38,116 nt of DNA from a virus (Duplodnaviria > Heunggongvirae > Uroviricota > Caudoviricetes). The notes under the pieces are model-generated. The model was not told the DNA's origin. It searched no databases and saw nothing but the letters and a program-made list of their open reading frames with translations. The DNA is taken from the IMG/VR virus record IMGVR_UViG_2541047893_000008; one strand, given 5' to 3'. Position numbers and translations under genes: made by a program. Each line of letters opens with the position of its first letter. Positions within the stretch are counted from its first letter, which is position 1. This document shows, in pieces, positions 17,909 through 35,958 of this stretch.

Positions 17909-18232
17909 GTGAGCACCATTCAAACAGGGATCACAGAGCAGGTTATTGCATGGCTCTTTGACCACCTGCCAACGGTGTATGCAGTAGGCGCGGCGGTCAG
18001 CATTTCCGCGCTGATGAGTCTTTATGACGGACGAACACTGGTTCAGACCGTAACGGGATCGCTGGCGTGCGGCGTTCTTGCCATGGCTGTGGCCGGGTCG
18101 TTGCGCTTCTTCGGTTTTCCTGAAGATGCCGTGACGTTTATCGGCGCATCAATCGGTTTTATGGGGGCAGAGAAAGCACGCGATAAGGTTATTGCGGCCT
18201 TTAATCGCAGGGTGAAGGAGAAGGACGAATGA
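17909..18232 (+). CDS. Putative holin
   Basis: About 107 aa with two to three hydrophobic helices and a charged C-terminus (RRVKEKDE); probable GTG start just after the X stop; directly upstream of the endolysin. Start uncertain. Confidence 0.55.
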   Translation: MSTIQTGITEQVIAWLFDHLPTVYAVGAAVSISALMSLYDGRTLVQTVTGSLACGVLAMAVAGSLRFFGFPEDAVTFIGASIGFMGAEKARDKVIAAFNRRVKEKDE

Positions 18233-18621
18233 GCAACACATTTAAATTCAGCAGCCGGAGCGAAAAGAATTTGCAGGGCGTAAATCCTGATCTGGTGAAA
18301 GTGACCCGACGGGCACTGGAAATTTCGGAAGTGGATTTTGGTATCACCGAAGGGTTGCGCAGTCGTTACCGCCAGAAGCAACTTGTGGCCACAGGTAAGA
18401 GCCAGACCATGAACAGCCGCCACCTTACGGGACATGCCGTGGATGTTGTGGCTTATATCGGCAGCCAAGTGTCATGGGAATGGCCGCTGTACGAAAAAAT
18501 CGCAGCCGCATTCAAACAGGCCAGCCGGGAACTGAATATTCCGGTGGAATGGGGCGGCGACTGGAAGACCCTGAAAGACGGACCGCATTTTCAGTTACCA
18601 CACGGAGCCTATCCGGCATGA
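18229..18621 (+). CDS. Endolysin, peptidase M15 (L-alanyl-D-glutamate peptidase / VanY-like) family
   Basis: 130 aa with zinc-binding signature (HLTGHAVDV ... DGPHFQLPH) typical of M15 endolysins; ATGA overlap with holin. Confidence 0.85.
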   Translation: MSNTFKFSSRSEKNLQGVNPDLVKVTRRALEISEVDFGITEGLRSRYRQKQLVATGKSQTMNSRHLTGHAVDVVAYIGSQVSWEWPLYEKIAAAFKQASRELNIPVEWGGDWKTLKDGPHFQLPHGAYPA

Positions 18622-19025
18622 AGCTCTGGCCAACGCTTGGCGTTGCTTTCCTTCTGATTGCCGAATGGGGAACATCCATGCGTCTGTCATGGTCGCTGGG
18701 CCGGGAGAACGCCAGAAACGAAGCGCAGGCCAGCACCCTGAAACGTACCGCCGACACCCTGAATATCATCAGCGCCGGGGTACAGGATATGCAGCAGGTG
18801 CTGGCGCAACTCCGCGTGGAAAATCAGCAACGCAATCAGGACGGAGAGGCAAGACGTGAACAGCTACGCAACGATATTGCAAAAGATGAATGCGCCCACG
18901 CTTTGCCTGACGCTCGTTTTACTGACAGGCTGCGCAGGCACGCAGAACGCGCTACGGCCAGCGCCGTCAGTCCGGCTTATACCGCAGACGCTGACCATAC
19001 CGGTAACGCCTCCCCCTTTCCCTGA
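18618..19025 (+). CDS. Spanin inner-membrane subunit (Rz/LysB-like)
   Basis: Start overlaps the endolysin stop; N-terminal TM helix followed by a charged coiled-coil-like region; position after endolysin. Confidence 0.6.
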   Translation: MKLWPTLGVAFLLIAEWGTSMRLSWSLGRENARNEAQASTLKRTADTLNIISAGVQDMQQVLAQLRVENQQRNQDGEARREQLRNDIAKDECAHALPDARFTDRLRRHAERATASAVSPAYTADADHTGNASPFP

Positions 19026-19176
19026 CACTCCCACATGGGGAAATCTCGGTATATGGGGCGACCGCCTTCTGGATGCACTGGAAACCTGTAACGCGGATAA
19101 ACGGGCCATTGAATTACTGGAACAGCGCAGGCTGCAACGACTGAACAACGAGGACAACAACCATGCTGAAAACTGA
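18886..19176 (+). CDS. Spanin outer-membrane lipoprotein subunit (Rz1/LysC-like), overlapping Rz in another frame
   Basis: Signal peptide with lipobox (LTLVLLTGCAG), Pro-rich, in the +1 frame overlapping the end of the Rz-like gene, as in P2 lysB/lysC. Confidence 0.55.
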   Translation: MNAPTLCLTLVLLTGCAGTQNALRPAPSVRLIPQTLTIPVTPPPFPDTPTWGNLGIWGDRLLDALETCNADKRAIELLEQRRLQRLNNEDNNHAEN

Positions 19177-19630
19177 TTCCCTGCGTGAAGCCATGACCCG
19201 TTCATGCCGATGGTGTCAGGCCAACCCGGAAAAATTCACCATTTTCGTGGAGAGCGGCAACATTGAAACGACCGGAGAAACGCCCTCGTTTGTTTACCGC
19301 TATCAGATGGTGATGTTTGTCATGGATTACGCCGGGGAGCTGGACGACCTCACGCTGCCGCTACTGGCGTGGTTATCCGAAAATCAGCCACAGTTGTTGC
19401 TCAATCCGGAGCGTAATCAGGACATCAAATTCTCCGCCGTTATCAATGACGATGACAGCGCCGATCTCCTGTTTACGCTCCCCCTGCGGGAACGCGTTCG
19501 CATTACGCGCAGCAGTCAGGGGACACCGCAGGCAGAGCACCTGCCGGAGCCAAAACCCCGTCTGCCATCTTCCGAAGGCGACTGGTCGCATATATTCCAG
19601 GATGTGACGTGGGGTGAAAGCGATGGATAA
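19163..19630 (+). CDS. R: Tail completion protein (P2 gpR family)
   Basis: 155 aa; N-terminus MLKTDSLREAM and block LPLLAWLSENQP match P2 R. Confidence 0.85.
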   Translation: MLKTDSLREAMTRSCRWCQANPEKFTIFVESGNIETTGETPSFVYRYQMVMFVMDYAGELDDLTLPLLAWLSENQPQLLLNPERNQDIKFSAVINDDDSADLLFTLPLRERVRITRSSQGTPQAEHLPEPKPRLPSSEGDWSHIFQDVTWGESDG

Positions 19631-20258
19631 GGCATTCACCCGTGTGGATGAAACCTTTGAGGCCATCCGCGACAGCCTGAATCAGCAGGCCATCAATAAC
19701 ATCGCCAGAAAGCTGGCACAGGATTTACGCCGCGCCCAGCAGGCGCGCATCCGGTCACAGAAAGCGCCGGACGGGACCGCATGGACACCACGCAGACGCC
19801 GCGTAACCCGGATACAGGAGCGCATTCGCTTTATCTGGAATAACGAAGCACGCACGCTGAAAAACTGGCATCACGACACGGGGAAATACGGGCGAACCAT
19901 TACCGGGTGGGATGAGGATAAAAACAATATCCGCACGTTTTACCGGGATGACATCGACCGTTTTCTGGAAATACGCACCCGGCGCATCAACCAGGACAGC
20001 ACAAAGCGCGTCCCCATGTTCGTAAAACTGCGCACCGCCCGCTACCTGAAAGCCCGTGCAGATGCTTCCGGTGTGACGGTGGGTTACAGCGGCGTGGCCG
20101 CACGTATTGCACGCGTTCATCAGTTCGGTGAGCGCGATCAGGTTGCGCCGGGCATTTTCACCGATTACCCGGTACGTGAGCTGCTGGGTATCAGCCAGGC
20201 AGATGAGCGCCTGATTTATAACACGGTGCTGGGCCGGATTGCGGAGGCTGTACGGTGA
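19623..20258 (+). CDS. S: Tail completion / virion morphogenesis protein (P2 gpS family)
   Basis: ORF overlapping the R stop; synteny R-S-V. Confidence 0.75.
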   Translation: MDKAFTRVDETFEAIRDSLNQQAINNIARKLAQDLRRAQQARIRSQKAPDGTAWTPRRRRVTRIQERIRFIWNNEARTLKNWHHDTGKYGRTITGWDEDKNNIRTFYRDDIDRFLEIRTRRINQDSTKRVPMFVKLRTARYLKARADASGVTVGYSGVAARIARVHQFGERDQVAPGIFTDYPVRELLGISQADERLIYNTVLGRIAEAVR

Positions 20259-20836
20259 GCGCAGAACTCATGCGACTGCTGAGCAACATCATCCGTACCG
20301 GGATCATCTCTGAAGTTGATGAGGAATCCTGGTGCGTGCGCGTTCGCAGCGGCGAACTGGAAACAGGCTGGCTGCGCTGGAACACCACGCGCGCGGGAGC
20401 CTTCAATGTATGGCTGCCGCCATCACCAGGCGAACAGGTGGTAATTGCCTGCATTGGCGGCAACCCGGAAACCGCCATGATAATTGGCAGCCTGTGGAGT
20501 GATGCCAGTCCGGCCCCCGGCAAAAGCCTGAAAGAAATCGTGGTCAGCGCGCCGGATGGCGCGGTGTTCCGCTACGACGCGGAAGCAGGCGCACTGAGCG
20601 CCAGCGGCATGAAAACAGCCACCCTGCAGGCATCCGTCAGCGTGACACTGGACACGCCCGTCGTGGAATGCACAGACCTTCTGAGAACGGCGACGCTTGA
20701 CGTCACAAAAGGAGGAAAGATGAGCGGCAATATCACGCACAGCGGCGGCAACTTCACCTCAAACGGCATTACCGTGCATACGCATAAACACGGTGGCGTG
20801 AAAGGCGGCAGCGATTCGACAGGAGGCCCGCAGTGA
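20255..20836 (+). CDS. V: Baseplate spike / assembly protein V
   Basis: GTG start overlapping the S stop; blocks (IRTGIIS, GEQVVIACIGG, VHTHKHGGV) match P2 V. Confidence 0.85.
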   Translation: MSAELMRLLSNIIRTGIISEVDEESWCVRVRSGELETGWLRWNTTRAGAFNVWLPPSPGEQVVIACIGGNPETAMIIGSLWSDASPAPGKSLKEIVVSAPDGAVFRYDAEAGALSASGMKTATLQASVSVTLDTPVVECTDLLRTATLDVTKGGKMSGNITHSGGNFTSNGITVHTHKHGGVKGGSDSTGGPQ

Positions 20837-21183
20837 CAACCCGCTACACAGGAATGAATCCGGACGGGACGGGAAACCTGAACGATATGGAGCACCTGAA
20901 ACAGTCAGTCAGGGATATCCTGACCACCCCGCTGGCAAGCCGGGTTATGCGACGGGAATATGGCAGCCTTGTGCCTGATTTGATTGACGAACCCATGAAT
21001 AACACCACGCGTCTGCAATGCATGAGTGCTGCCGTGATTGCGCTGACACGATGGGAACCCCGCATTGCCCTGGATGCCATCGACGTTGTCTGGAAAGCGG
21101 GAGGCCGCGCCGGGGTGACGCTGTCGGGCACTGTCATGCAGACCATGCAGAATGTTGAATTAACCATCACGCTGAGGGAGTAA
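20833..21183 (+). CDS. W: Baseplate wedge protein W (gp25-like)
   Basis: 116 aa; MTTRYTGMN...RVMRREYGSL matches P2 W. Confidence 0.85.
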   Translation: MTTRYTGMNPDGTGNLNDMEHLKQSVRDILTTPLASRVMRREYGSLVPDLIDEPMNNTTRLQCMSAAVIALTRWEPRIALDAIDVVWKAGGRAGVTLSGTVMQTMQNVELTITLRE

Positions 21184-21186
21184 ATC

Positions 21187-22083
21187 ATGCCTGCCGTTGA
21201 CCTTTCCCAGTTACCGGAACCCGCCATCATCGCGGAGCCTGACTTTGAGGCAATTCTGGCTGACACAAAGGCCATGATGATTGCGGCTTATCACGCCGAA
21301 CAGCGTGAAGCCGTTTCCGCCGCGCTGGAGCTGGAATCGGAACCCCTGAACGTTATCGCCCAGACAACAGCGTTTCGTGAAATGCTGTTACGCCAGCGGG
21401 TCAATGAGGGGGCACGCGCCTGCATGTTAAGCCACAGCGCCGGGACAGACCTGGACAACCTCGCGGGCAATATGAACACAAAGCGCCTGACCATCACTCC
21501 GGCAACGGATACCACCGACGCAGTGATGGAAAGTGACACCTCGCTGAGACTGCGGGCGCAGCGGGCGTACGATGGCCTGAGTGTTGCTGGCCCGTCAGGT
21601 GCATACGAGTATTTTGCCCGCAGCGCCAGCGGTCTGGTGCGTGATGCGCGGGCTATCAGTCCGTCTCCGGCAAATGTGACGGTTTCCATTCTGTCCACTG
21701 AAGGCGACGGCACAGCAACGGAGGCGTTGCTTAATACCGTTCGCGCCGTTCTGAATGCAGAGGACACCCGCCCGGTGGCCGACCGCCTGACCGTACAGAG
21801 CGCCAGAATCGTGACATGGCGGCTGAATGCAAAACTGTACTTTTACCCCGGTCCGGAATCCGAACCTATTCTGGCTGCGGCGGAATCGTCGTTCAGGAAG
21901 TGGCTGGCTGAGCAGGGGCTTATCGGTCAGGACGTGGCGTTGTCCGCCATTGCTGCCGCACTGCATGTGCACGGTGTGCAACGCGTGGAGATAATCGAAC
22001 CCACACAGAATATGGCCATCAGCGACATACAGGCGGCGCGCTGTGAGTCATTCACCATCAGCGAAGGTGGGCGCAATGAGTAA
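21187..22083 (+). CDS. J: Baseplate assembly protein J
   Basis: 298-aa ORF in P2 position between W and I. Confidence 0.88.
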   Translation: MPAVDLSQLPEPAIIAEPDFEAILADTKAMMIAAYHAEQREAVSAALELESEPLNVIAQTTAFREMLLRQRVNEGARACMLSHSAGTDLDNLAGNMNTKRLTITPATDTTDAVMESDTSLRLRAQRAYDGLSVAGPSGAYEYFARSASGLVRDARAISPSPANVTVSILSTEGDGTATEALLNTVRAVLNAEDTRPVADRLTVQSARIVTWRLNAKLYFYPGPESEPILAAAESSFRKWLAEQGLIGQDVALSAIAAALHVHGVQRVEIIEPTQNMAISDIQAARCESFTISEGGRNE

Positions 22084-22606
22084 TTCGTTGTTACCACCAT
22101 CAGCCAGCAATTTCATGCGTTGTGCCGAAGCCGTCGGAACACGCATTACAGACATTCCGGTAGACCTCAACACACTGTGGTCGCCGGATACCTGCCCGGT
22201 GCATCTGCTGCCCTATCTCGCCTGGGCATTTTCCGTTGACCGCTGGGATCGCAACTGGCCGGAAGAGACAAAGCGACAGGTTATTCGTGATGCATGGCTG
22301 ATACACCGACACAAAGGGACCATCAGCGCACTGCGCAGGGCCATTGAGCCGCTGGGATACCTCATTCGCGTGTCTGAGTGGTGGGAGTTCGGCGGAGAAC
22401 CGGGAACATTTACCGTTGAAGTCGGCACACTGGACAGTGGCGTGACGGAGGAAATGTATCTGGAAATGGAGCGGTTGATTGCTGATGCCCGCCCGGTCAG
22501 CCGCCACATGACAGGGCTGAATATCATTCAGGAAATTCCGGGGGATATTTTCGCAGCGGCGGCAACTTATGACGGTGAAGTTATTACCATTTATCCGGAC
22601 GATTAA
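22076..22606 (+). CDS. I: Baseplate / tail fibre attachment protein I
   Basis: Start ATG overlaps the J 3-prime end (MSNSLLPPSASNF...); synteny J-I-H. Confidence 0.85.
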   Translation: MSNSLLPPSASNFMRCAEAVGTRITDIPVDLNTLWSPDTCPVHLLPYLAWAFSVDRWDRNWPEETKRQVIRDAWLIHRHKGTISALRRAIEPLGYLIRVSEWWEFGGEPGTFTVEVGTLDSGVTEEMYLEMERLIADARPVSRHMTGLNIIQEIPGDIFAAAATYDGEVITIYPDD

Positions 22607-22608
22607 GC

Positions 22609-24033
22609 ATGAGTACCACAACACGAAAATTTAAAACCGTTATCACCGATACAGGTGCAAAAAAATTAGCTCAGGCAGCCGCGCCAGATGGTAAGCCTGT
22701 CCGCCTGACTCATATGGCCGTGGGCGACGGTGGCGGCACGTTGCCCACACCAGACAGTAAGCAGACCCGTCTGGTGCATGAGGTGTGGCGACACACTGTT
22801 AATCGCGTCATCCTGGACGCAACACATCAGAACCGCATTATTGCGGAGCTGGTTATACCTCCTGAAACGGGCGGATTCTGGATCCGGGAAATTGGTGTAT
22901 TTGATGAGCACGGCGATTTAATCGCGGTGGGCAATACTGCCGAAAGTTACAAGCCAACCGTTGCCGAGGGGTCCGGACGTGCACAAACATTTCGCACCAT
23001 TCTGACCGTATCCAGCACTGCCAGCGTGGCGCTTACCGTGGATAACACCATGGTGATGGCCACAGTGGATTACGTGGATGACAAACTGAAAGAGCATGAA
23101 CAGTCACGACGTCACCCGGATGCCTCGCTGACCGCAAAAGGCTTTGTTCAACTCAGTAGCGCCACTAACAGCGATTCTGAAACGCTGGCCGCAACGCCGA
23201 AAGCGGTTAAGGCCGCGTATGACCTGGCTAACGGAAAATATACCGCTCAGGACGCCACGACGGCACGAAAAGGGATAGTCCAGCTCAGCAGTGCAACCAA
23301 CAGCACGTCTGAAACGCAGGCTGCAACGCCGAAAGCAGTAAAGGCGGCATATGACCTTGCTAACGCAAAATATACCGCTCAGGACGCAACGACGGCACGA
23401 AAAGGGATAGTTCAGCTCAGTAGCGCCACTAACAGCCCGTCTGAAACGCTGGCTGCGACACCAAAAGCGGTTAAGGCGGTAATGGATGAAACGAACAAGA
23501 AAGCGCCTTTAAACAGTCCTGCGCTGACCGGAACGCCAACAACGCCAACTGCGCGACAGGGAACGAATAATACCCAAATCGCAAGCACGGCTTTCGTTAT
23601 GGCTGCGATTGCCGCCCTTGTAGATTCGTCACCTGACGCACTGAATACGCTGAACAAGTTAGCGGCGGCGCTGGGAAACGACCCGAATTTTGCGACCACC
23701 ATGACTAACGCGCTTGCGGGTAAGCAACCGAAAGATGCCACCCTGACGGCGCTGGCCGGGCTTGCTACTGCGGCAGACAGGTTTCCGTATTTTACGGGGA
23801 ATGATGTCGCCAGCCTGGCAACCCTGACAAAAGTCGGGCGGGATATTCTTGCGAAATCGACCGTTGCTGCCGTTATCGAATACCTCGGTTTACAGGAAAC
23901 GGTAAATCAGGCTTCTGGCGCATTACAGAAAAACCAGAACGGCGCAGATATTCCGGGTAAAGATACCTTCACCAAAAACATTGGTGCCTGCCGCGCATGT
24001 GAGGCGGATCAGAATATTGGAGGGGAGCATTAG
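22609..24033 (+). CDS. H: Tail fibre protein H, constant N-terminal part plus a short segment after the gix crossover; apparently truncated
   Basis: 474-aa ORF with a conserved fibre N-terminus and internal 44-aa tandem repeats; crosses the left gix site at codon 423-431 and stops about 45 codons later. Fibre-like sequence continues out of frame downstream. Confidence 0.85.
   Translation: MSTTTRKFKTVITDTGAKKLAQAAAPDGKPVRLTHMAVGDGGGTLPTPDSKQTRLVHEVWRHTVNRVILDATHQNRIIAELVIPPETGGFWIREIGVFDEHGDLIAVGNTAESYKPTVAEGSGRAQTFRTILTVSSTASVALTVDNTMVMATVDYVDDKLKEHEQSRRHPDASLTAKGFVQLSSATNSDSETLAATPKAVKAAYDLANGKYTAQDATTARKGIVQLSSATNSTSETQAATPKAVKAAYDLANAKYTAQDATTARKGIVQLSSATNSPSETLAATPKAVKAVMDETNKKAPLNSPALTGTPTTPTARQGTNNTQIASTAFVMAAIAALVDSSPDALNTLNKLAAALGNDPNFATTMTNALAGKQPKDATLTALAGLATAADRFPYFTGNDVASLATLTKVGRDILAKSTVAAVIEYLGLQETVNQASGALQKNQNGADIPGKDTFTKNIGACRACEADQNIGGEH
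23137..23496 (+). repeat. About 2.7 tandem copies of a 132-bp (44-codon) repeat inside H
   Basis: Protein repeat KG(F/I)VQLSSATNS(D/T/P)SET(L/Q)AATPKAVKAAYDLAN(G/A)KYTAQDATTAR seen three times; nucleotide copies near-identical. Confidence 0.8.
23875..23900. other. gix/hix-like crossover site (left), inside H
   Basis: atcgaatACCTCGGTTTACAGGAAAC; inverted copy at 27174-27201. Matches the Mu gix consensus as I recall it; homology between the two copies continues about 100 bp. Confidence 0.75.
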
Positions 24034-24906
24034 GCATGTACAGCGCCGCATATTATTTTGGGGCTAGAGTGGTAGGCAGCAATTAACCATCCTTACTCGG
24101 GGAGCAAAGGCGAGTGGGCTTCTGCAAAGAATAAGGTCACTACAGATGCCGGTTGCGGTAACGCTTTTCTTGAAGGTGAAGTCAATGAAGTGATTGTGCC
24201 TGGCGGCTCGACTACCATTCGCGTAAATGCGCCGAGTTCTTTCAGCGGGGGTGAGATTACTGAGCCCGAAATCAATTCCATTATACATAGCGTTAATTAA
24301 GATCATGGATGGAGAGGTGATTACATTACGGGAAAGCAGCTTCCTGTATTTGTTTTAGCGCAAGCAGGGCGCACGGTCACAAATCATACTGATGTTGGCA
24401 CCGTCGGTCAAACCGCTGTTTAGGATGCAGCAACCAATCGCGCGACAAAATTCACGAACGCCCACAACATGCTGGCTTGTAACAGCGCGCGTGTACATTT
24501 TTGCGTGAATTCCATGTACGGCAGTATCTCCAATCTTTGCGGGAGTCTGGGTATTGGAATGGCTGATGCCTTGTGAGGAATTTACATCACATCAGGCAAA
24601 CACGATACTGGGTTTGAAGGAAAATATGCTCGGGCGCTAGATGCTTAAGGTAATGTTGCGCATGTACTCCTCTTTAGTAATTCATCTGTTCTATCATGAA
24701 AGGGTACTGGCTCTGCGGACAGGAAAGGTTTCGTCGTTACAGGTGCAATTACCGCTGACCGTGATGCATCATTTGATTCATGGCAAACTTGGTCAATTCC
24801 AAATTGTGTAAAGGGGGGTGGGGATTACGCGGGGAATTTCTATAGTCGACGCACTACAGAAACCTTAGTGATATTTACTGTAAACGATCAGATCCATACA
24901 AGCTAC
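24034..24906 (+). pseudogene. Remnants of the distal (receptor-binding) part of the tail fibre, broken by multiple frameshifts and stops
   Basis: Fibre-like peptide stretches in three different frames (SKGEWASAKNKVTTDAGCGNAFLEGEVNEVIVPGGSTTIRVNAP...; KGTGSADRKGFVVTGAITADRDASFDSWQTW...GDYAGNFY...), each ending in a stop; no ORF over 100 codons. Confidence 0.45.
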
Positions 24907-25387
24907 TGAGGTAACTTAAAATCCAGTTGTTTGAAACAGAGTATGCTTGACACAGATCTGAATAACGAAGTAATTAACTGCCAAACACTTAACATCTGGT
25001 GCACGTCCGGTCATGTGTTGTCTTTTATATATGTTCGGGAGACTCATTAAATCATCGCCAAGGATATTGCGTCGTTGTATTACATGATCGTTCAGAAGAT
25101 TATAGATCTGACATTTTATATTAATGCGAGCGCTTAATATGAGTAGTTGTAAGGACATCATAGCCGGTAACGCTGCAACGCCGGAAGACTGAAAATTAAC
25201 AAAGAAGCCTGCTGCCATCCGGCATTAATCAGAAGAAGGTAAAAACCTCACAGAGACAGCTAAGCATTTTCTCTCAGACGAATAAAAAAATGTTAACGAA
25301 GAAAATACTATTTTCGCCGCTATCAGAATATATGGTCAATTCCATACTGCCGAAAATGTTACCGGAATAAACGTAACGAGAGTAGGC

Positions 25388-25600
25388 TTGAAACCGGGCC
25401 TTAATTTTTACGGTAACTTTAGGTTTCATGCTGGCTCTGCCGTATCCACACGGTTGACGACAGATGAGCAGCGTCCACATGAAGCAACACATGAGGCTTC
25501 GTCACCCGTCGACGTAGAAAGCCTTATAGAGCCTCCGGAACGCGCTGTAAGGCTTAACGCGGCGGAGAATGAGGCAGGCGTACGACATGAGGCCTGGTGA
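25388..25600 (+). pseudogene. Remnant of a tail fibre assembly (chaperone) gene C-terminus
   Basis: Track ORF 25388..25600 ends ...IEPPERAVRLNAAENEAGVRHEAW, resembling the conserved C-terminus of P2 G / Mu U-type assembly proteins; upstream part not in frame. Confidence 0.35.
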
Positions 25601-26560
25601 TGCTATAGTTCTATCGTATACAGTCTGGTTACGACAGCGCCCTCCTTACACCACCAGCCTCATTAGTCATTAGCGCCTCGGATGAAGCCAACTTCCAGTC
25701 CCTTAGTTCCGCAAAAACTACTAGCAGTATGGAATTGTGCATAGATGCTACTAGCTGCGAAAAGATCATTTTCTCTGTTAACTTTCGTTAATTCTTCTCG
25801 GAGAAAGTGCTTAACCTCAGCATAGAAGTTTTTCCCTGCTTCTGATCACTGACAAGTTGCAGCATGCTTCTCTTTTAACTCTCAGCCTTCCGCTGCTTTT
25901 CTGCCTCGCGCTTAGTTCGCTTTTCAACGCATCATTCTAAGCACACGCTTTAATCCGCCATGTCACCTCTGTGTATTGCTGTAATGTCATGTAATTCAAC
26001 CCCGCTATCGTATTGCCGATTTAGGGATCTAACTCCCTTACCAATATAACTAATAATGCCTTACTTGAAGGGGACTGGTAGTACCATGTTTGGCAGTAAT
26101 TCCTATTGTTCCTTTGATGAGTTCTTAGCAGCACATCATTAACACCATTGGAATCTAAATTGTTTCAGTTGCTTGGTTGTATCTTTCCTTTTACAGTTAA
26201 CGGCACCGAGGTATTTGTATTTCGCCAACTATAAAAATTCCACCCGGAATCCTAACCCCGATCAGTGCCAGACGGTACTGGCGAATTCCCCCTCGTATTA
26301 AATGATTCATCACGGGCTCCGTTATCTGAACCTGAAAGTGCGAATAATGTACTTTCAGAAGCGTGAGGACCATTTAATGATTGAACAGAGCCCTGTCTAA
26401 CCCAGCATACATCTGCAATAAAAGCAGAATCATCCTCCGCCTCAGTACATGTACGAACAACCCCAGTAGAGGTTTTGCCTATAGCTGTGGAATACCCCCC
26501 CCGGTTAGCTGCAAAGCCATAACCATGACGCGCTGTAAAATAAAAAATAACGCCGTACCT

Positions 26561-27184
26561 TTAGTTAGAACGATAATATCCTGGCCGATAGCTACACGCC
26601 TTAATGGTGAAGGGGATGATGCTTTCCGTCGCGCCATTGATAGCTGCCCACTTAAAAGTTCTTTGACAGTCGGAGTCATCCGCATTAGGATTAACAACCC
26701 TTAGTCCTTCTTCCCCAAAAACTAGTGCAGGCAGCTGCCTGCCTTCAATGTAAAAACCTCTCCATACATGAGCATCAGCATCGCTAGGTTTAATGGAGGT
26801 GATTGGGGGCTCAGTAGTCCCGTACGCGGAGAACTTACTTGGCGCAGATAAGCCTCTATCAGTCCCGCCACGAGGGCTTACCACTCCAACCAATGCACAT
26901 TCATGACTTGCATAACCGCAACCGGTATATGTGATCACCTTATTCATTCTGGAAGCCAGTGAGCCTGTGCTGCCTCAGGAACGACGGAAAAAAACTCCAT
27001 GCCACTCTAGCCAAACTACATTAGACGGCGCATTAAATGCGTGACTATGCATACCATTTTTCTTACATGCCTCATATGCGCGGCAGGCACCAATGTTACT
27101 CAGGAAGCGATCCTTATCAGGAATATCCGCGCCGTTCTGTTTTTTTTGTAATGCGCCAGAAGCCAGATTTACCGTTTCCTGCAA
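26561..27184 (-). pseudogene. Alternative (inverted-orientation) tail fibre C-terminal segment, interrupted
   Basis: Minus-strand ORF 26975..27184 starts inside the right gix site and encodes QETVNLASGALQKKQNGADIP..., a paralogue of the H sequence at the left site, but stops after 69 codons; fibre-like sequence continues in another frame (ORF 26561..26947). Confidence 0.45.
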
Positions 27185-27201
27185 ACCGAGGTTTTAGATA
27201 A
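27174..27201. other. gix/hix-like crossover site (right), inverted relative to the left site
   Basis: Reverse complement reads ttatctaaAACCTCGGTTTGCAGGAAAC, near-identical to the left site and to my recollection of the Mu gix sequence; about 55 bp upstream of the invertase gene. Confidence 0.75.
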
Positions 27202-27255
27202 TGGCCGTTTCCGGCCTGCATGGCATGATTTGCGCTTTTGGACGGGAGATTCAGT

Positions 27256-27855
27256 GTGCTGATTGGTTATGTAAGGGTATCAACAAATGACCAGAATACA
27301 GGCCTGCAACGAAACGCTCTTGTTTGTGCAGGATGTGAACAAATATTTGAAGATAAATTAAGCGGGACAAAGACAGACCGACCGGGATTAAAACGCGCTT
27401 TAAAGCGGCTTCAAAAAGGTGACACGCTGGTTGTCTGGAAACTGGATCGCCTTGGGCGAAGCATGAAACATCTGATTTCTCTCGTCGGAGAACTACGGGA
27501 GCGAGGGATTAATTTTCGCAGTCTGACCGACAGCATAGATACATCTTCTCCAATGGGGCGTTTTTTCTTCCACGTGATGGGTGCCCTGGCTGAAATGGAA
27601 CGTGAATTAATTGTTGAACGTACACTGGCCGGACTGGCGGCAGCGCGCGCACGGGGGCGCACAGGCGGACGTCGCCCGAAGCTGACAAAAGAACAGCATG
27701 AGCAAATAGCAAGGCTGATCAAAAACGGTCATGACAGGAAACAACTGGCGATCATTTACGGCATCGGCATATCGACGATTTATCGTTATCACCCTGTAGG
27801 CGATATACAGGCTGAAGAAACAACCAGGCAGACTCAGGAAAATGAAAACCGCTAA
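27256..27855 (+). CDS. Serine recombinase, DNA invertase of the Gin/Pin/Cin/Hin family
   Basis: N-terminal catalytic motif LIGYVRVSTNDQ, resolvase core (VVWKLDRLGRS), C-terminal HTH (GISTIYRY); almost colinear with Gin/Pin from memory. Probable GTG start (track ORF begins 27238). Confidence 0.9.
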   Translation: MLIGYVRVSTNDQNTGLQRNALVCAGCEQIFEDKLSGTKTDRPGLKRALKRLQKGDTLVVWKLDRLGRSMKHLISLVGELRERGINFRSLTDSIDTSSPMGRFFFHVMGALAEMERELIVERTLAGLAAARARGRTGGRRPKLTKEQHEQIARLIKNGHDRKQLAIIYGIGISTIYRYHPVGDIQAEETTRQTQENENR

Positions 27856-27874
27856 TCTGACCATTAGCGGTTTT
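27845..27874. terminator. Bidirectional terminator-like palindrome between convergent invertase and gpU genes
   Basis: aaaaccgctaat-ctgacc-attagcggtttt: perfect 12-bp arms, 6-nt spacer, T-runs on both strands; overlaps the invertase stop codon. Confidence 0.55.
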
Positions 27875-27881
27875 GCGTTAA

Positions 27882-28376
27882 TCAAAACAGCCCTTTAACG
27901 GAGCTGGCCGCGCTGTTAAGGGATGATGTGACCTTATCTTTGAAGCCGGACAGCATATCACTGAACGATGAGGATTGCAGGCGCTCCCGCAAATCCTCAT
28001 CACAGCGTTCAAGGGTCAGTGAAAATTCTATCTTTTTCGCCTTACCGTAGCGATCAAACTCGGAACGGGTCGTATTCGTTCCGGTCAGGACATACATGCC
28101 GTAAATCTGCCCGACGCCATCAATCAAAGGCCAGGGTCGTCCTGTATACGCCTGCGTGGTCAGCAGCGACAGCGACACTTCGCCACCTGTAATTTCAGGA
28201 TAAAGCACACCAGAAAGAACGATGCGATCATCACCTGCACCGATATACTGCCAGCTTGCTGAACGGTTAACGCGTTCATTTTTCACATGCCGCCAGCTTT
28301 TGTTTTGCTGTAACTGCTGATGCGGCAGCGTGCGCAGCTCAAAAACAAACATGCCGTAGATCATCATCATGGCCAT
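27882..28376 (-). CDS. U: Tail protein U (P2 gpU family)
   Basis: 164-aa minus-strand ORF; MFVFELRTLPHQQ... and FSLTLERCDEDL match P2 U; follows tape measure T on the minus strand. True start may be one of the Met residues 3-5. Confidence 0.85.
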   Translation of the reverse strand: MAMMMIYGMFVFELRTLPHQQLQQNKSWRHVKNERVNRSASWQYIGAGDDRIVLSGVLYPEITGGEVSLSLLTTQAYTGRPWPLIDGVGQIYGMYVLTGTNTTRSEFDRYGKAKKIEFSLTLERCDEDLRERLQSSSFSDMLSGFKDKVTSSLNSAASSVKGLF

Positions 28377-28382
28377 GACTCC

Positions 28383-31226
28383 TCAATCTTTATCGTAAAA
28401 ACTGCCACGCCAGGCACGGGCGCGCCGTTCCATTTCTGCCCTGACCATTTCACCGACCAGTTTCGCCAGTTCGCGGGGATTCTGCGTAACAACGTTATGC
28501 AGATGAACATGAATTTCACCACCAAATCCGGAGGCAACAGGCTCCCGGTTACGGGAAGTTACAGGAACTGATGCCACTGGAGATCGTATAGCCTCCGCCA
28601 CCGGGCGGGAGCTGGCCGCAACAACAGGGACCAGCGCCGGAGGCAGCGGAGCCGGGAGCACGGGTGTGATATTAATTGCGGGGGCAGGCTTACTGGCCTG
28701 CGCAATCTTCCGCTCCTGCCACTCCCCACGAACAGCAAGTGCGCGGGGCAGGTTCTTAAAGACAATATCGCCGGGGCCAATGCGTTTTTTCGTCTCATCA
28801 ACCAGCTTACCTGTGTTATCAGCAATTTTGCTGAGTCTGCGTAGTGTACCGGTATTGCTGTCTGTGAGCGGTTTGTTGTCTTTGGGTTTATCACCTCCGG
28901 TGCCATTGCCATTTTCCACAGGCTTCGGCGGATTGATTTTCGCCAGGTCCCCCTGAAGCAAGGCAACCTTGTCCTGAAGAATGGCCGCACGCTGTGCGTC
29001 TTCGATTTTCTTTCTCGCCCTTTCCGCTTCATCCGGAAGAACACCGAGTTTTTCAAGTATCCACGCCAGCGTATCCAGCAACATTTTTGCAGGCGTCAGA
29101 ACAAGCTGTAACGCGCCACCAAGAACGTTACCGAATATCTCGCCAGCACTGGTACATTTATCCAGCGTTTCCTTGCTGGACTCCATCGGTGACAGCAGCG
29201 ATTTAAACCAGTTAAACACCTGGCTGATCCCGCTTCCGATTGCGTCAAAAACAGGACCAAACTGTTCAAAGGTTTCGCGCAACGGGATCAGCCTTTCCAT
29301 AATCCCGCTGAACACCCCGGCAAAAAATGCCCTGATGGGATCCCAGTATTTCCAGATAAGAACGGCAGCTCCGGCAAGCGCAGCCACGATAAGACCAACC
29401 GGACTGAACAGCGCCCCGATAGCACCTCCCAGCAAAGAAACGGAACCCGTCACCATTCCCCATAGTGCTGGCAGGACCCTGACAGCATTCATTGATCCGG
29501 TCAGGAGAGAAAAACCAAGACGCAGTTTTGCCAGCGGGCCAGCAAGCACACCAATAGCCAGCGACAACGAGCCAACCGTTGCAGTCATTGCCAGCAACGC
29601 ACCGCCTGCTATCAGTAGCTGGCGCGTCAGTGTCGGATGGGCCTGCGCCAGCGCCGTCACCCTTGATACCACCCGTGTGAGCCACTGCGTGACAGAACGC
29701 AGCGGACCGTCAATCAGATCTGCAATGCGGATGCGCAACCCTTCCCATGCACTGCCGAGTGATTTCAGATCGCCGTCAAGGTTGTTGGCCATAACCTTTG
29801 CTGTGCGTTCAGCCTCACCGCGTGCGCCTTCAAGTTCTTTTCTCAGTTTAGGTAAGGAACCGTCACCCGCTGCATCAACGAGCGCCATAAACGATGTGAA
29901 AGCCTCTTCTCCGGCAATGTCCTTAAAGAACGATACCCGGTCAACTTCCCCGTATTTGCGGGTGGCTTTATAAAGGTCGGCCAGCACATCCTCCATCGGG
30001 CGCATTTTGCCGTTCGCGTCAGAGACTGCCACACCAAGCTCTTTCAGCGCCTCTGCTGCCGCCTTTGGCGGTGATGCCAGACGAGCCAGGCTGGCACGCA
30101 TTGCCGTCCCGGCATCACTTCCCCTGATACCCATATTCGCCAGCACGCCTGCTATCGCTGCGGCCTGCTCCAGCGATATTCCCAGCTTACCCGCCACCGG
30201 ACCTGCATATTTCATGGTTTCGCCCAGTGCGCGAAGGTCAGTGTTGGTACGGGTAAACGCTGCGGTGAGCGTGTCACCGACCCGGTCCATCTGGTCGGCA
30301 GAAAGGCCGAACTGCGTCAGGATGTTTGAGCCAATATCCGCCGTCTCGCCGAGATCCATACCGCCAGCCGTTGCCATGCTCAGTACACCGGGAAGCGCAG
30401 CCTGAATGGCCTGTGGTGTGAAGCCAGCCATTGCAAGAAATGCCTGTCCACTGGCGGCATCTCCAGCGGTGAACTGCGTTTCAGAGCCAAGTTTTAACGC
30501 CTGCTCACGCAGCGCCTTAAACTGCGGGCTGTTTTTGTCGATTCGCGTCAGTGCCTGAACGCGGGACATCTCTTTGCCGAACCCGATCGCAGGCTGCAAA
30601 AAACGCCCGGCAGCATAGCCGCCAGCCGCTGCAGCACCAATTGCCAGCGCACCACCTGTTTTCAGTTTTCCCGCTGTTTCCTGCACGCGCGAATACCGCT
30701 CACGCGCCCGCGTTACACGCGCAAGCGCCTGCCGTTCGCGTTCAAGCTGGTTGTTGTACTGTTCGGTGCGTCTGATGGCCTGCTGGATGGTGTTATCGCT
30801 GCCTGTCAGGGAAATGCCGTGGCGTTTCAGCTCTCCGCCAAGTTCCCGCATTTTCTGAATTTCCCGTGTGCGCGATTCATTCAGGCGTTCAAGCCGGGTG
30901 CTTAACTGCTGCATCAGCTTTTGTTGTTTTTCGCTGAGCACTGTACCCGTGCGTTGTAACTGATTAAGGGCGTTAAGCTGGCGTCGTGCTTTCACGATAC
31001 CCGCATCCGCTTTACTGACAGCGTCGCGGGCGCGCTCAAATGAACGCGCCTGACGCTCGAGATTTTTGATCGCCCCCTGCGTTCGCTGGATGGAGTCACC
31101 AAACTGCCTCATCAGGCGGCGGGCGTTTTCGGCAGGCCGGGTCAGCCTGTCAACGGCGCTGAAAGCGACCCGGATATCAAGAGTCTTCATTGTCTGCATT
31201 CCCGCTGCGAAGTGCCGCCCGCTCAC
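28383..31226 (-). CDS. T: Tail tape measure protein (P2 gpT family)
   Basis: 947-aa minus-strand ORF; long helical N-terminal region, Gly/Ala-rich hydrophobic central segment, position between E/E' and U. Confidence 0.9.
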   Translation of the reverse strand: MSGRHFAAGMQTMKTLDIRVAFSAVDRLTRPAENARRLMRQFGDSIQRTQGAIKNLERQARSFERARDAVSKADAGIVKARRQLNALNQLQRTGTVLSEKQQKLMQQLSTRLERLNESRTREIQKMRELGGELKRHGISLTGSDNTIQQAIRRTEQYNNQLERERQALARVTRARERYSRVQETAGKLKTGGALAIGAAAAGGYAAGRFLQPAIGFGKEMSRVQALTRIDKNSPQFKALREQALKLGSETQFTAGDAASGQAFLAMAGFTPQAIQAALPGVLSMATAGGMDLGETADIGSNILTQFGLSADQMDRVGDTLTAAFTRTNTDLRALGETMKYAGPVAGKLGISLEQAAAIAGVLANMGIRGSDAGTAMRASLARLASPPKAAAEALKELGVAVSDANGKMRPMEDVLADLYKATRKYGEVDRVSFFKDIAGEEAFTSFMALVDAAGDGSLPKLRKELEGARGEAERTAKVMANNLDGDLKSLGSAWEGLRIRIADLIDGPLRSVTQWLTRVVSRVTALAQAHPTLTRQLLIAGGALLAMTATVGSLSLAIGVLAGPLAKLRLGFSLLTGSMNAVRVLPALWGMVTGSVSLLGGAIGALFSPVGLIVAALAGAAVLIWKYWDPIRAFFAGVFSGIMERLIPLRETFEQFGPVFDAIGSGISQVFNWFKSLLSPMESSKETLDKCTSAGEIFGNVLGGALQLVLTPAKMLLDTLAWILEKLGVLPDEAERARKKIEDAQRAAILQDKVALLQGDLAKINPPKPVENGNGTGGDKPKDNKPLTDSNTGTLRRLSKIADNTGKLVDETKKRIGPGDIVFKNLPRALAVRGEWQERKIAQASKPAPAINITPVLPAPLPPALVPVVAASSRPVAEAIRSPVASVPVTSRNREPVASGFGGEIHVHLHNVVTQNPRELAKLVGEMVRAEMERRARAWRGSFYDKD

Positions 31227-31706
31227 GCCAGCTAACCACTTCGCCGGGCGTCATCATGAAGATTTCGGCGGGCGACCAGTTAAAAATGGCGGCAATATCC
31301 GCCACAAAGTCTTCTATGTACTCAAAGCACACAACCGTGATCAGGCTTCCGTCGCCTGTTCGTTCTTCCCGCCAGAGTCCGCACCGCTCAAAAAATTTAC
31401 GGCAACCACACATAACTGAATAAAGTCACGGGATGCCATTTTTTTGATCGTCACTTCATCCAGTCGCGGTGATGTCACGCGTGACAGCAGCGTAAACATG
31501 GATTCCGCTTTCAGATTCAGCACATCAGACAGCGACAAATCTCGCAGAGATCCAGCCTGCTCAATAGCTCCGGTAATCTCCACATACGTGATTTTTTCGC
31601 CGCCTCGCTCAATTGGTTGGGTAAGTTTTACGCCACGCTCACTGGTTTCTTTCACAGTGTCAGCAACGACCGTGTTTTCGTTATCGATGTTTTTCGTCTC
31701 TTTCAT
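31177..31706 (-). CDS. Tail assembly chaperone E+E' (product of a programmed -1 ribosomal frameshift)
   Basis: E frame (31341..31706) and overlapping -1 frame (31177..31413) joined at a TTTTTTG slippery heptamer about 31389-31395 on the minus strand; same arrangement as P2 E/E'. Confidence 0.7.
31341..31706 (-). CDS. E: Tail assembly chaperone E (P2 gpE family)
   Basis: 121-aa minus-strand ORF between tail tube and tape measure genes; contains the slippery site near its 3-prime end. Confidence 0.85.
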   Translation of the reverse strand: MKETKNIDNENTVVADTVKETSERGVKLTQPIERGGEKITYVEITGAIEQAGSLRDLSLSDVLNLKAESMFTLLSRVTSPRLDEVTIKKMASRDFIQLCVVAVNFLSGADSGGKNEQATEA

Positions 31707-31760
31707 CAGGAAACTCCTTTCAATCAGAGGCGACGCACTGCGCCGCCTGCATATTACTTA

Positions 31761-32273
31761 TCAGCCAAGCCTAAGCGCGGAACGGATGCGATCGGGCACA
31801 ATGTCCTTGCCGTCCTTCCGGTAAATGAAGTTCAGCAGGTCAATCTCCCACAACGGGCGATCGTTAACACTCAGCTTGTAGTAGGTGTTTTTAATGGCGT
31901 AAGTGTGTGATGTGGCTTCGCCCTGTTTGGCTTCCCCCATATCAATTTCCGTCACACGTCCGCGCATTTCGACTTCATACAGGTCGCTTTCTGCATCGGT
32001 GTAGTATTCACCCGCAAAACGCAGCAGCGTGCCGTCAATCGTGCCGCCATACTTAAGGAACAGCTCACGAACTGCGCCCCCCATGACAAAGCTCGCATCA
32101 AGCGCGGAGTCGTCCAGACCGAGATCAATACTTACCGCACCCATCATGCCGCCCCCCCGGTAGCTGTCGGTTTTGCGCGTCAGTTTGGGCAGAGTGACGG
32201 ACGTCACCTTACCCACTTCGTTTTCACCATCCACAAACAGCGTAAAAAAGCGAAGATGTTTTGGCACAGCCAT
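31761..32273 (-). CDS. FII: Tail tube protein (P2 gpFII family)
   Basis: 170-aa minus-strand ORF immediately downstream of the sheath gene. Confidence 0.88.
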   Translation of the reverse strand: MAVPKHLRFFTLFVDGENEVGKVTSVTLPKLTRKTDSYRGGGMMGAVSIDLGLDDSALDASFVMGGAVRELFLKYGGTIDGTLLRFAGEYYTDAESDLYEVEMRGRVTEIDMGEAKQGEATSHTYAIKNTYYKLSVNDRPLWEIDLLNFIYRKDGKDIVPDRIRSALRLG

Positions 32274-33457
32274 CAGGCACCTCCCAGCACCGCAAATGCG
32301 GGTTCAAAGTATTCATCAGTAAACGTCTGGTAAAGCTCCATGTCTTCCAGTGGCGGAACGGGCGTATATTTGTAGCGAATACGCACACGTCCCTGACGTA
32401 AATCCGTGGTGCTGTTATCCACCACGTCATACCAGCACTCCGCGCCAATCAGTTTCCCGGCAGTAACCAGTGAATCCAGTTTTGCCCTGATGGCACTGAT
32501 AACATCCTTCACGTTCGCAGGCGTCAGTGGACTGTCGATGGTTTCAAACTGCGCTTCTGCAATTGAATCAGCCAGCACCTGTGCGGTTCGGGTATACACC
32601 TCAAAGATGTAGGCGTTCGTTTCCGGTGTGCGGTTGCCCCAGAAGCGGAACCCGTTGCGACGAATAATGGTCGTGATTTCTTTGTTGTTGAGGCTGTTGG
32701 CATCGCTGTCTTCGGCCTGCAACGACCAGAACACATGCCTCGACATCCCCAGCACATTTTTAACCGGAACGTTGGACAGTGATTTGTGCCATCCCTGCTC
32801 ATGGTCAATGTACGCACGAAGGCCGCACGCATAGGCAGGCGCGGGGAACGTTTCGTTTTTGCCACTTTTCGGGTTGTAGGCGATGAAGTCCGGCCATAAG
32901 AGCATCACCTCACGTTCGTTGAATTTCTGGCGGTAGGTAATCGCCTCAGCCATCGTGTTACAGCCGTGACATGAGGCATACACAAACGCGCGCAGTTTAC
33001 CCGCAATCACGCACAGGGATTTTGTTACCGCCTCCGTGTCCAGCTCCGGCGCGGCCAGAATACGCGGACGGTATCCGATGCTTTCATCCTGCTCTGCAAC
33101 AAGCAGCGCATACATCCCCGTATAGCTGCCGTCAGATTCAGAACCACCGATAACCAGTTGATCCTGCGTCTTTCCGTCTTCTTCTTTGTGTTCAGCCACG
33201 CGAACGACGATCACCTTTGTGCTCACCTGGTCTGCAATGGCCTTAAGCGCACGATAAAGCGTCCCCGTTGTCCCGCATTTTCCCAGCACGTCATTGACGC
33301 GGGTCAGCAGTGTGGGCTTGTTCAGCGGGAACAGCTTCGCGTCCGCATCATCCGCCGTTGCCACGATACCGATAACGCTGGAATCAACATCGTTAATCGC
33401 TGTTACCAGGTCGGTATTTTCCGTAACACGGGCACCATGAAAACGAGTTTCACTCAT
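32273..33457 (-). CDS. FI: Contractile tail sheath protein (P2 gpFI family)
   Basis: 394-aa minus-strand ORF; blocks (LRAFVYAS, WPDF, EQGWHK, IRRNGFRFWGNRT, YTRTAQV, YTPVPPLE) match P2 FI. RBS AAGGGG. Confidence 0.9.
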   Translation of the reverse strand: MSETRFHGARVTENTDLVTAINDVDSSVIGIVATADDADAKLFPLNKPTLLTRVNDVLGKCGTTGTLYRALKAIADQVSTKVIVVRVAEHKEEDGKTQDQLVIGGSESDGSYTGMYALLVAEQDESIGYRPRILAAPELDTEAVTKSLCVIAGKLRAFVYASCHGCNTMAEAITYRQKFNEREVMLLWPDFIAYNPKSGKNETFPAPAYACGLRAYIDHEQGWHKSLSNVPVKNVLGMSRHVFWSLQAEDSDANSLNNKEITTIIRRNGFRFWGNRTPETNAYIFEVYTRTAQVLADSIAEAQFETIDSPLTPANVKDVISAIRAKLDSLVTAGKLIGAECWYDVVDNSTTDLRQGRVRIRYKYTPVPPLEDMELYQTFTDEYFEPAFAVLGGA

Positions 33458-33614
33458 AGCTTCAGCCCCTTGTATCCGTTAAATGATTCGGCAACAATCA
33501 TCACCCACCACGCGCGTAATCTCACCCCTGCGCCGTTCTCCCGACCCGGCGACAACAAAAAGCAGTAACCCCCTCCGCACGCACATGCGACCATGCCGCA
33601 CAGGGAGGGAACAG

Positions 33615-35027: not shown

Positions 35028-35218
35028 CAGGCAGAATTGCCGGAGTAACAAAAAAGCGATAGATTACGCGCGGGTGCCTTTCGGCTGATGGTCGGAGGGA
35101 ATACCCGAAGGCCAGATGTGGAAAGGCCCCGGAAAACATTTCTGTTTAACCGAGGCCCTAACATATCTACCTTAAGCAAGTGATAGGTTAGCGCCTCTCC
35201 AACAAAGGAGCAAGCGCT

Positions 35219-35359
35219 ATGTCGCAAAAATCGCTTACGGCCATCACGTTCTGCGTGACGGTAATCCTCATCATCTGGATGCTGCACGGTTCGCTGTGTG
35301 AAATACGGATGAGCTTTTGGGGAGCGGAGTTTGCGGCGTTCTTACAGTGTAAGCAGTAA
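35219..35359 (+). CDS. Hok/Gef-family-like small membrane toxin (candidate type I toxin)
   Basis: 46-aa ORF with RBS AGGAG 7 nt upstream: short N-terminus, one TM helix (AITFCVTVILIIWML), then the SLCEIR motif and EFAAF segment characteristic of Hok/Gef/PndA proteins. Followed by a 9-bp-stem hairpin. Confidence 0.55.
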   Translation: MSQKSLTAITFCVTVILIIWMLHGSLCEIRMSFWGAEFAAFLQCKQ

Positions 35360-35621
35360 GGAAACCGCGACGGGGGAGTAATCCCCCGTCAATCGGTTGC
35401 TAGGGTAAGGTCGATAAGGCACCCTATCTCACAGCTCTAAATGCAAAAATTCCATGAAACTGTGGGATTTTTGCATCACATACTGATACAGACCAGCCCT
35501 TCTATATGCCTCACTCTATACCAGCTAATCAATTGACACTTATCAATAAAAATAAATCTGATAAAATCAAAATGTTTTGTAACAAATATCAACTCGTATT
35601 AATCCAAAGGAGGCGGATTAC

Positions 35622-35954: not shown

Positions 35955-35958
35955 TAAA

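Follow-up and report, generated by a model that had tools for sequence, protein, structure and literature searches.

Gin-type tail fibre switches are textbook systems, and P88-like prophages of the P2 family that carry such a module are common in E. coli. In the G segment of phage Mu, a constant fibre part is followed by a crossover site, a tip with its chaperone, an inverted chaperone and tip, a second site and the invertase. The C segment of P1 and P7 (with Cin), the P segment of e14 (with Pin) and the Hin system of Salmonella share the enzyme family and the type of site. The Gin, Cin, Pin and Hin systems all rely on a Fis-dependent enhancer; in Mu this enhancer, sis, is said to sit inside gin, as Kahmann et al. 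reported in 1985. The biology of such a switch is already known for the group considered here: Xuanwuvirus (P88-like Peduoviridae) genomes are annotated in this way, and inversion of a fibre segment in P2-like prophages has been shown in EPEC E2348/69, where both orientations coexist in clonal cultures (Goldberg et al. 2014, PMC4272514). The papers on P88 and phiSM that we consulted contain no analysis of the inversion, and the one on P88 makes no mention of it.

The DNA that we analysed, referred to below as the window, is a stretch of 38,116 nt, which was originally predicted to hold a classical Mu G-like host-range inversion system on a P2-type fibre gene. The enzyme, the crossover sites, the constant part of the fibre and the flips seen in relatives all support this. 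We consider it very probable that the locus is indeed a host-range switch in the prophage of E. coli UMEA 3088-1, a P88-like (Xuanwuvirus) member of the P2 family, and that the 3.1-kb interior of its segment, as deposited, is a random, column-by-column blend of the two orientations.

Judged on its flanks and gene order, the prophage belongs with the P88-like Xuanwuvirus group in P2-type gene set, order and nucleotide identity. The flanks are 91-97% identical in DNA to those of P88, 503458, Shae_phiSM and P884B11, which share the order V-W-J-I-H, chaperone, inverted chaperone, inverted fibre fragment and invertase, as well as the tail genes U, T, E, FII and FI that come next on the opposite strand. 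The inverted fibre fragment of P88 is 97% identical to the forward-orientation tip here. The variable parts, in contrast, are otherwise combined in these phages, and high-identity coverage reaches just 25-44% of a 5.8-kb query.

Invertase, crossover sites and constant fibre part

The gene at 27256-27855 (plus strand) was thought to encode a Gin-family invertase, and an intact open reading frame, its Pfam domains and 81% identity to Mu Gin over 191 aa agree with this. The product is a serine DNA invertase of 199 aa with a GTG start (automatic ORF calling reaches further, to a TTG at 27238), and its catalytic-serine motif YVRVSTNDQ is the same as in Gin (catalytic motif MLIGYVRVSTNDQ, identical in the two enzymes). 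It has the resolvase catalytic domain with the active-site serine (PF00239, E = 6e-50) and the C-terminal helix-turn-helix (HTH_7, PF02796) of small serine recombinases, and the Gin structures 3UJ3 and 4M6F are its top PDB matches. An NCBIfam search gave only sub-threshold matches for the invertase, and no matches for the fibres and chaperones. From 27170 to 27480 the window is 96% identical in DNA, over 310 nt and without internal gaps, to the region of Mu from gixR into the 5' part of gin. The 5' part of the invertase gene (about 27256-27480, plus strand), which lies in the place of Mu sis, probably acts as a Fis-dependent enhancer here too.

When the whole 38 kb was searched with the Mu gix 26-mer, allowing at most 3 mismatches, exactly two matches were found, compared with 0 in 100 shuffles. 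The left site (23873-23898, plus strand; TTATCGAATACC-TC-GGTTTACAGGAA, core 23885-23886) lies within H at codon ~426, and the right one (27176-27201; TTATCTAAAACC-TC-GGTTTGCAGGAA on the minus strand, core 27188-27189) lies beside the invertase gene. The sites are inverted and 3.3 kb apart, each with 12-bp half-sites around an identical 2-bp TC core, in keeping with the two inverted gix sites, one beside the invertase and the other inside H, that had been proposed at about this distance; the comparison with Mu gix that was suggested along with them gives 24/26 for each. At the same threshold, no third site that would point to a shufflon is present in the window or in the near-identical prophage of E. 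coli AH21F008.

The sites form the outer ends of inverted-repeat arms at 23873-23982 (plus strand; coding for ..IEYLGLQETVNQASGALQKNQNGADIPGKDTFTKN and homologous to the Mu S' arm) and 27092-27201 (minus strand; including the right site). The left arm and the reverse complement of the right one are identical at 93 of 110 positions in the window and AH21F008 alike, i.e. 85% overall, with identical blocks of no more than 18 nt. A general repeat search of the window missed this repeat, which became visible only by direct alignment. Taken at face value, the arms of the window match at 115 of 137 positions, but the inner ~25 nt of this match are an artefact, because bases 27076-27091 copy the reverse complement of 23983-23998; in AH21F008, a clean relative, the genuine inverted repeat spans 110 nt. 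The original prediction had put the homology at about 100 bp, and both peptides that it quoted are found in the sequence.

The constant N-terminal part of H (aa 1-425; 22609-23884, plus strand) ends at the left site, as had been expected. It consists of a P2-type tail-collar N-terminal domain and three Phage_fiber_2 repeats (PF12571 and PF03406) and is 100% identical to that of AH21F008. The locus shares with the Mu G segment its layout, enzyme, sites and gixR-gin region, whereas its constant part is a P2-type H, with tail-collar domain and Phage_fiber_2 repeats, rather than Mu S; its segment is 3.3 kb with arms of 110 nt at 85% identity, and it resides in an integrase-dependent P2-family prophage and not in a transposing phage. 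The other systems differ further: the C segment of P1/P7 is 4.2 kb with far longer inverted repeats, e14 is a defective lambdoid element, and Hin switches a promoter instead of a coding exon. Like the locus described here, those of EPEC E2348/69 combine a P2-like prophage, a Hin/Gin-homologous invertase and alternative fibre C-termini, but one of them has three repeats and four variants in a shufflon-like arrangement (PMC4272514), as opposed to two sites here.

Both orientations in near-identical prophages

Over 35 kb outside the segment, 8 SNPs and a single 6-nt indel separate the window from the prophage of AH21F008, and the register is kept on both sides. The prophages of AH21F008 and NR1430, both near-identical to this one, carry the segment as exact flips of each other with their genes intact, and H is accordingly 744 aa long in the former and 842 aa in the latter. 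Between these two, orientation switches on the left between 23881 and 23892, a 10-nt interval that contains the gix core, and on the right NR1430 returns from flipped to forward between 27182 and 27193. In a related prophage, the segment orientations of strains 95JB1 and 95NR1 differ likewise. Tens to hundreds of complete genomes hold both types of junction, at least 71 draft contigs terminate within the gix site, and other draft assemblies break 25-40 residues beyond the crossover, yielding partial proteins of 450-466 aa. Since the segments of AH21F008 and NR1430 are mirror images, the switch works in near-identical prophages. Inversion by exchange at the core is thus established for the element through these flips and not for the UMEA 3088-1 culture itself, on which the window offers the indirect evidence described below.

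In the register of AH21F008, the forward-orientation tip (the Sv part of H) extends up to 24843 (plus strand), followed by the first chaperone gene at 24846-25379 (plus strand); the second chaperone gene (25408-25935) and Sv' (25937-27189) lie on the minus strand. Besides an inverted fibre fragment that lacks a promoter, AH21F008 and NR1430 each have two Caudo_TAP chaperones (177 and 175 aa), so that two opposed C-terminal exons, each with its chaperone, are present in both, an arrangement that is unreadable in the window. The forward-orientation tip closely matches Mu S' of G(-), at 96.6% identity, and P7 Sv, at 97.2%. The second tip (417 aa), in contrast, has no relationship to Mu S, and its identity to peduovirus fibres is only 58%.

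A mechanism can be proposed on this basis. The Gin-type invertase, together with host Fis bound to the enhancer within the invertase's own gene, would cut the two gix sites at their central TC, and the 3.3 kb between them would be rotated. The constant 425 residues of H would thereby be joined to one of two C-terminal tips, each then followed by its own assembly chaperone: either the tip that matches S' of Mu G(-) at 97% identity, or the divergent peduovirus-like one. The dependence on Fis and enhancer, like the consequence for host range, is what we infer from the related systems, and the receptor specificity of either tip is presumed by homology.

A mosaic of forward and flipped bases

Read literally, the deposited segment would have lost its function. 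H terminates at 24033 after 474 aa instead of the expected 744 aa, its frame contains 7 in-frame stops up to 24843, and between 24033 and 27184 no ORF exceeds 128 aa. No intact gene lies between the arms (23999 to 27075, or to 27091), a point that had initially been overlooked. One may thus consider that point mutations accumulated in the segment until its genes for fibre and chaperone were lost, leaving a region of pseudogenes and a dead switch, the more so as the interior is merely about 60-70% identical to relatives. However, all of the 3355 positions from 23860 to 27214 carry either the forward or the flipped base of AH21F008. Among the 2238 informative sites between 23999 and 27091, 1117 are forward, 1121 are flipped and none is neither, and there are no indels over these 3.1 kb. 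Random substitution would produce the exact flipped base at all 1121 differences with a chance of about (1/3)^1121, and the flanks, being virtually identical to AH21F008, leave no time for a 36% divergence of the interior. The per-base comparison therefore refutes decay, to which we assign practically no probability. The same pattern, in which the differences are exclusively flipped bases with no base bias, disposes of stop-codon reassignment, hypermutation and neutral decay as sources of the stops. Neither is the segment simply in the flipped orientation relative to AH21F008, as the flipped version matches at just 63.8%.

The garbled interior (23999-27075) thus alternates, base by base, between the forward and the flipped segment, which are exactly equal in length, and corresponds to no real molecule. 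The choice between the two switches almost at random (run lengths are geometric; runs test z = -2.2), and alphabetical or base-specific tie-breaking was rejected, since none of the six base pairs shows a preference. The following 16 bases (27076-27091) are purely flipped, with 11 consecutive flipped calls, and replace what should be the inner end of the right arm, whereas the arms themselves (23887-23998 and 27092-27187) are purely forward. The blend is visible even without a reference: compared in register with its own reverse complement, the interior is 61.6% identical, as against 25.6% at shifted centres and 27.7% in the true segment. Picking at random between orientations, column by column, creates in-frame stops and destroys every gene, and such a consensus does not reveal the alternative fibre and chaperone genes.

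The public draft of E. coli UMEA 3088-1 (GCA_000460115.1) carries the same mosaic: the window is identical to its KE701516.1 over 13,425 nt, and the truncated 474-aa product is deposited as GenBank protein EQW61544.1. The presence of both sequence and product in NCBI rules out that the window was scrambled in silico on purpose. Thus, with no site matching neither orientation, no indels, a near-random choice and the same mosaic in a public draft, the interior is an assembly artefact.

Source and meaning of the mosaic

The most likely cause of the artefact is that the sequenced culture contained both orientations, and that the assembler merged two alternatives of equal length base by base. The Broad UMEA series may have been assembled with ALLPATHS-LG, and such alternatives were perhaps written as ambiguity codes and then resolved at random; this serves as a lead only, and literature on the assembly accession or on the assembler's ambiguity format yielded nothing usable. 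An alternative is that the culture was pure for one orientation and that the inverted repeats alone allowed the reverse complement to pass as another closure of the gap, in which case the mosaic would be uninformative about inversion in UMEA 3088-1. The purely forward arms, which a simple 50:50 pile-up is not expected to yield, and the start of the mosaic only past the arm homology do resemble a gap closure more than a population pile-up, and the breaks of other drafts 25-40 residues past the crossover fit as well. Yet arms of 85% identity with identical blocks of at most 18 nt are too short to mislead a large-k short-read assembler unless a second type of junction is present, relatives flip readily, and both forms have been reported in cultures of lysogens with such switches (PMC4272514), so that we regard a pure culture as unlikely.

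Less probable still, and in our view quite improbable, are two prophage copies fixed in opposite orientations and collapsed by the assembler, which would give an exact 1:1 mixture in the absence of ongoing switching. The nearly equal counts of forward and flipped sites agree with two copies, but random resolution of ambiguous columns leads to 1:1 at any underlying ratio. Moreover, the window runs unbroken from the integrase through the prophage into host flk and yfcJ on a 2.26-Mb scaffold, which a second 35-kb copy would normally break at the prophage ends.

As matters stand, a public genome record and RefSeq/GenBank proteins hold 3.1 kb that never existed as a molecule, and a literal reading of the locus would lead to the false verdict of a decayed pseudogene switch. 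A wider reading, which we put forward tentatively and with more doubt than confidence, is that the mosaic is the footprint of a roughly balanced mixture of switch states in the UMEA 3088-1 culture, and that mosaics of this kind, flanked by inverted repeats and identical in part to their own reverse complement, are a recurrent, so far unremarked artefact of some draft assemblies. The proposed test is simple and reference-free, namely an interior that, aligned in exact register around the repeat centre, matches its own reverse complement at about 60% of positions. If this wider reading holds, the test could flag bogus deposited proteins such as EQW61544.1 and could be used to mine public drafts for actively switching invertons. 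The artefact is easy to recognise and, if it did arise from a mixed culture, it is evidence of an active switch in this clinical isolate.

A P88-like prophage with a Gin-type inversion module

The window contains a complete P2-family prophage within a segment of E. coli chromosome. The integrase (1-1020) is followed by cox/repressor, replication, portal/terminase, capsid, lysis and baseplate (V, W, J, I) genes and then by the fibre gene H, starting at 22609; on the strand opposite to H are the tail genes U (27882-28376), T (28383-31226) and, beyond T, E, FII and FI, past which lie ogr and two host genes, flk and yfcJ. Scaffold KE701516.1 (NCBI draft GCA_000460115.1, strain name in GenBank E. 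coli UMEA 3088-1) is identical to the window over 13,425 nt. The closest phage records are those of Xuanwuvirus, i.e. phage 503458, Citrobacter phage Shae_phiSM, P88 and P884B11 (91-97% identity in the flanks), all annotated with two tail fiber proteins, two tail fiber assembly proteins and a DNA invertase, and the prophage belongs to this P88-like group. Adjoining the replication gene is a plasmid-type segregation cassette, made up of a ParM-like actin ATPase (8016-8975) and a gene to 9294 of the "partitioning/stability family" (as annotated in the near-identical prophage of E. coli AH21F008); being odd in an integrated P2-like element, it hints at a possible episomal phase. Cargo between ogr and flk (about 35200-36852) comprises a Hok/Gef toxin gene and two further genes, encoding a zinc-ribbon protein (35622-35954) and a protein annotated "type VI secretion system-associated protein TagO" (35959-36852). 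At 33483-34724 the window has a single 413-aa ORF, the gpD-like late tail gene; the DNA of AH21F008 is identical here (locus L009, 3393-4246) and is annotated as an 801-nt VgrG/Pvc8-family CDS plus a partial pseudogene, so that the annotations are inconsistent and the sequences do not differ.

As originally predicted, the ORF at 27256-27855 (199 aa, GTG start, Pfam Resolvase and HTH_7) encodes a Gin-family invertase: it shares 81% identity with Mu Gin, the catalytic motif MLIGYVRVSTNDQ near the N-terminus being the same in both, and among PDB entries the Gin structures 3UJ3 and 4M6F match it best. Two inverted gix-like sites had also been proposed, one of them inside H, and a search of the window with the Mu gix 26-mer, allowing at most 3 mismatches, recovered exactly two (none in 100 shuffles), namely TTATCGAATACC-TC-GGTTTACAGGAA on the plus strand at 23873-23898, at codon 426 of H, and TTATCTAAAACC-TC-GGTTTGCAGGAA on the minus strand at 27176-27201. 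Arm similarity extends past both sites. The right site and the DNA leading on into the invertase gene are 96% identical over 310 nt to the matching Mu DNA, and in Mu this same stretch, from gix into gin, holds the Fis-dependent enhancer sis. The constant part of H carries three tandem 132-nt (44-aa) repeats (23118-23513), the latter two 79% and 67% identical to the first, which correspond to three Pfam Phage_fiber_2 repeats.

Both orientations in related prophages

In AH21F008 the segment is intact and in the forward orientation: in window coordinates, H (22609-24843, 744 aa) and a chaperone gene (24846-25379) are followed by an inverted chaperone gene (25408-25935), an inverted promoterless fibre fragment (25937-27189) and the invertase, both chaperones being of the Caudo_TAP family. 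In the near-identical prophage of E. coli NR1430 this segment is exactly flipped, so that H is 842 aa long and the other chaperone comes after it. A base-wise comparison places its forward-to-flipped change between 23881 and 23892 and the return between 27182 and 27193; each interval spans 10 nt with the TC/GA core at its centre. Two isolates from Adelaide, 95JB1 and 95NR1 (loci L010 and L011), share a related prophage in which the flanking proteins are identical and the invertase (WP_000905062.1) is the same, with the fibre segment oppositely oriented (H of 700 versus 798 aa) and the chaperone order swapped. Of the two tips, the forward one (319 aa) shares 96.6-97.2% identity with Mu S' (G-), P7 Sv and the P88 inverted fragment, and the flipped one (417 aa) reaches no more than 58% with peduovirus fibres.

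The original idea of a Mu G-like switch grafted onto a P2-type fibre gene is thus supported by what is directly observed, namely the enzyme, the two sites and the flips found in nature. Of the hallmarks of the Gin/Cin/Pin/Hin family open to in silico testing, the locus has the recombinase type, two 26-bp sites that share one core, and alternative exons with chaperones, and inversion at the core is seen in the related prophages; the DNA expected to bear the enhancer is conserved. The mechanism is accordingly the classical one, in which dimers of the invertase bound at both gix sites would join Fis on the enhancer in an invertasome, and cleavage at the 2-bp core, 180-degree subunit rotation and religation would swap the fibre tip together with its co-transcribed chaperone, changing receptor specificity; dependence on the enhancer and on Fis and the effect on host range are presumed from homology. 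Inversion has been experimentally demonstrated in P2-like E. coli prophages (PMC4272514).

A blended segment interior

No gene is intact between the arms in the window: H ends at 24033, after 474 aa (660-842 aa in relatives), and no window ORF longer than 128 aa follows its stop up to 27184. Fibre-like and chaperone-like frames nevertheless persist in the interior, with in-frame stops and no frameshifts. The stretches 18000-23998 and 27092-33000 are essentially identical to AH21F008 in one common register (8 SNPs and one 6-nt indel in the 35 kb outside the segment), and the interior, also indel-free, is only 55-73% identical. Against the reverse complement of the AH21F008 segment, centred by the two gix sites so that position p pairs with 51074 - p, it is 63.8% identical without gaps. 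Position by position, each base from 23860 to 27214 is either the forward or the flipped AH21F008 base: among 2238 informative positions (23999-27091), 1117 are forward, 1121 flipped and none neither. With run lengths that are geometric and no preference for any base, the choice comes near to a series of independent coin tosses (runs test z = -2.2). A reference-free test agrees: when the interior is set in exact register against its own reverse complement, identity is 61.6%, where the true segment gives 27.7% and shifted centres give 25.6%.

The repeat arms (23887-23998 and 27092-27187) are purely forward, and 27076-27091 is purely flipped, reproducing 23983-23998 in reverse complement. Because of this copy, the true inverted repeat of 110 nt (93 identical), in line with the roughly 100 bp first estimated, is inflated to an apparent 137 nt; likewise, both peptides first quoted from the two copies are present, but the minus-strand one ("...NIGACRAYEA") is chimeric. 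An automated repeat search of 22000-29500 missed this 110-137-nt, ~84% inverted repeat yet listed much weaker pairs, so that absence from its output should not be taken as absence of a repeat.

Point-mutational decay is ruled out, as 1121 of 1121 changes are to the flipped base. Recombination would need switching every 1-2 bases between sequences that are ~28% identical, and no process is known to do this. With both failing, the interior is a computational blend of two alternatives of equal length. It stands in the public record, where the "tail fiber protein" EQW61544.1 / WP_021554833.1 of E. coli UMEA 3088-1 (474 aa, coding span 22609-24033) has its last ~11 residues and stop codon translated from the mosaic, and these are artefactual.

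Origin and meaning of the mosaic

Most likely, the sequenced DNA held both orientations. An assembler meeting two identical-length alternatives between the same anchors may have merged them column by column, each ambiguous column then being settled arbitrarily. Heterogeneity is supported by the ready flipping in relatives (NR1430/AH21F008 and 95JB1/95NR1), and both forms are reported to coexist in clonal cultures of E. coli that carry P2-like prophage switches (PMC4272514). It is supported also by at least 71 draft E. coli contigs in which a "partial" H of 421, 424 or 427 aa ends inside the gix site, a point at which a mixed population would make an assembly graph fork. These partial proteins are identical to the window's H and end at window positions 23871-23889, the contig breaks falling exactly at the crossover; other partial H proteins end 25-40 residues further, at the repeat-arm end. 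The unmixed arms speak against a simple read pile-up. It is unlikely that the mosaic arose purely computationally from a single-orientation culture, and a collapsed second prophage copy is a highly improbable source.

The locus itself is known biology, its module being already annotated in the P88-like Xuanwuvirus group, and its sole remarkable feature is the artefactual interior. This deserves mention as a problem of data quality, and such blending may serve as a reference-free marker of active invertons.
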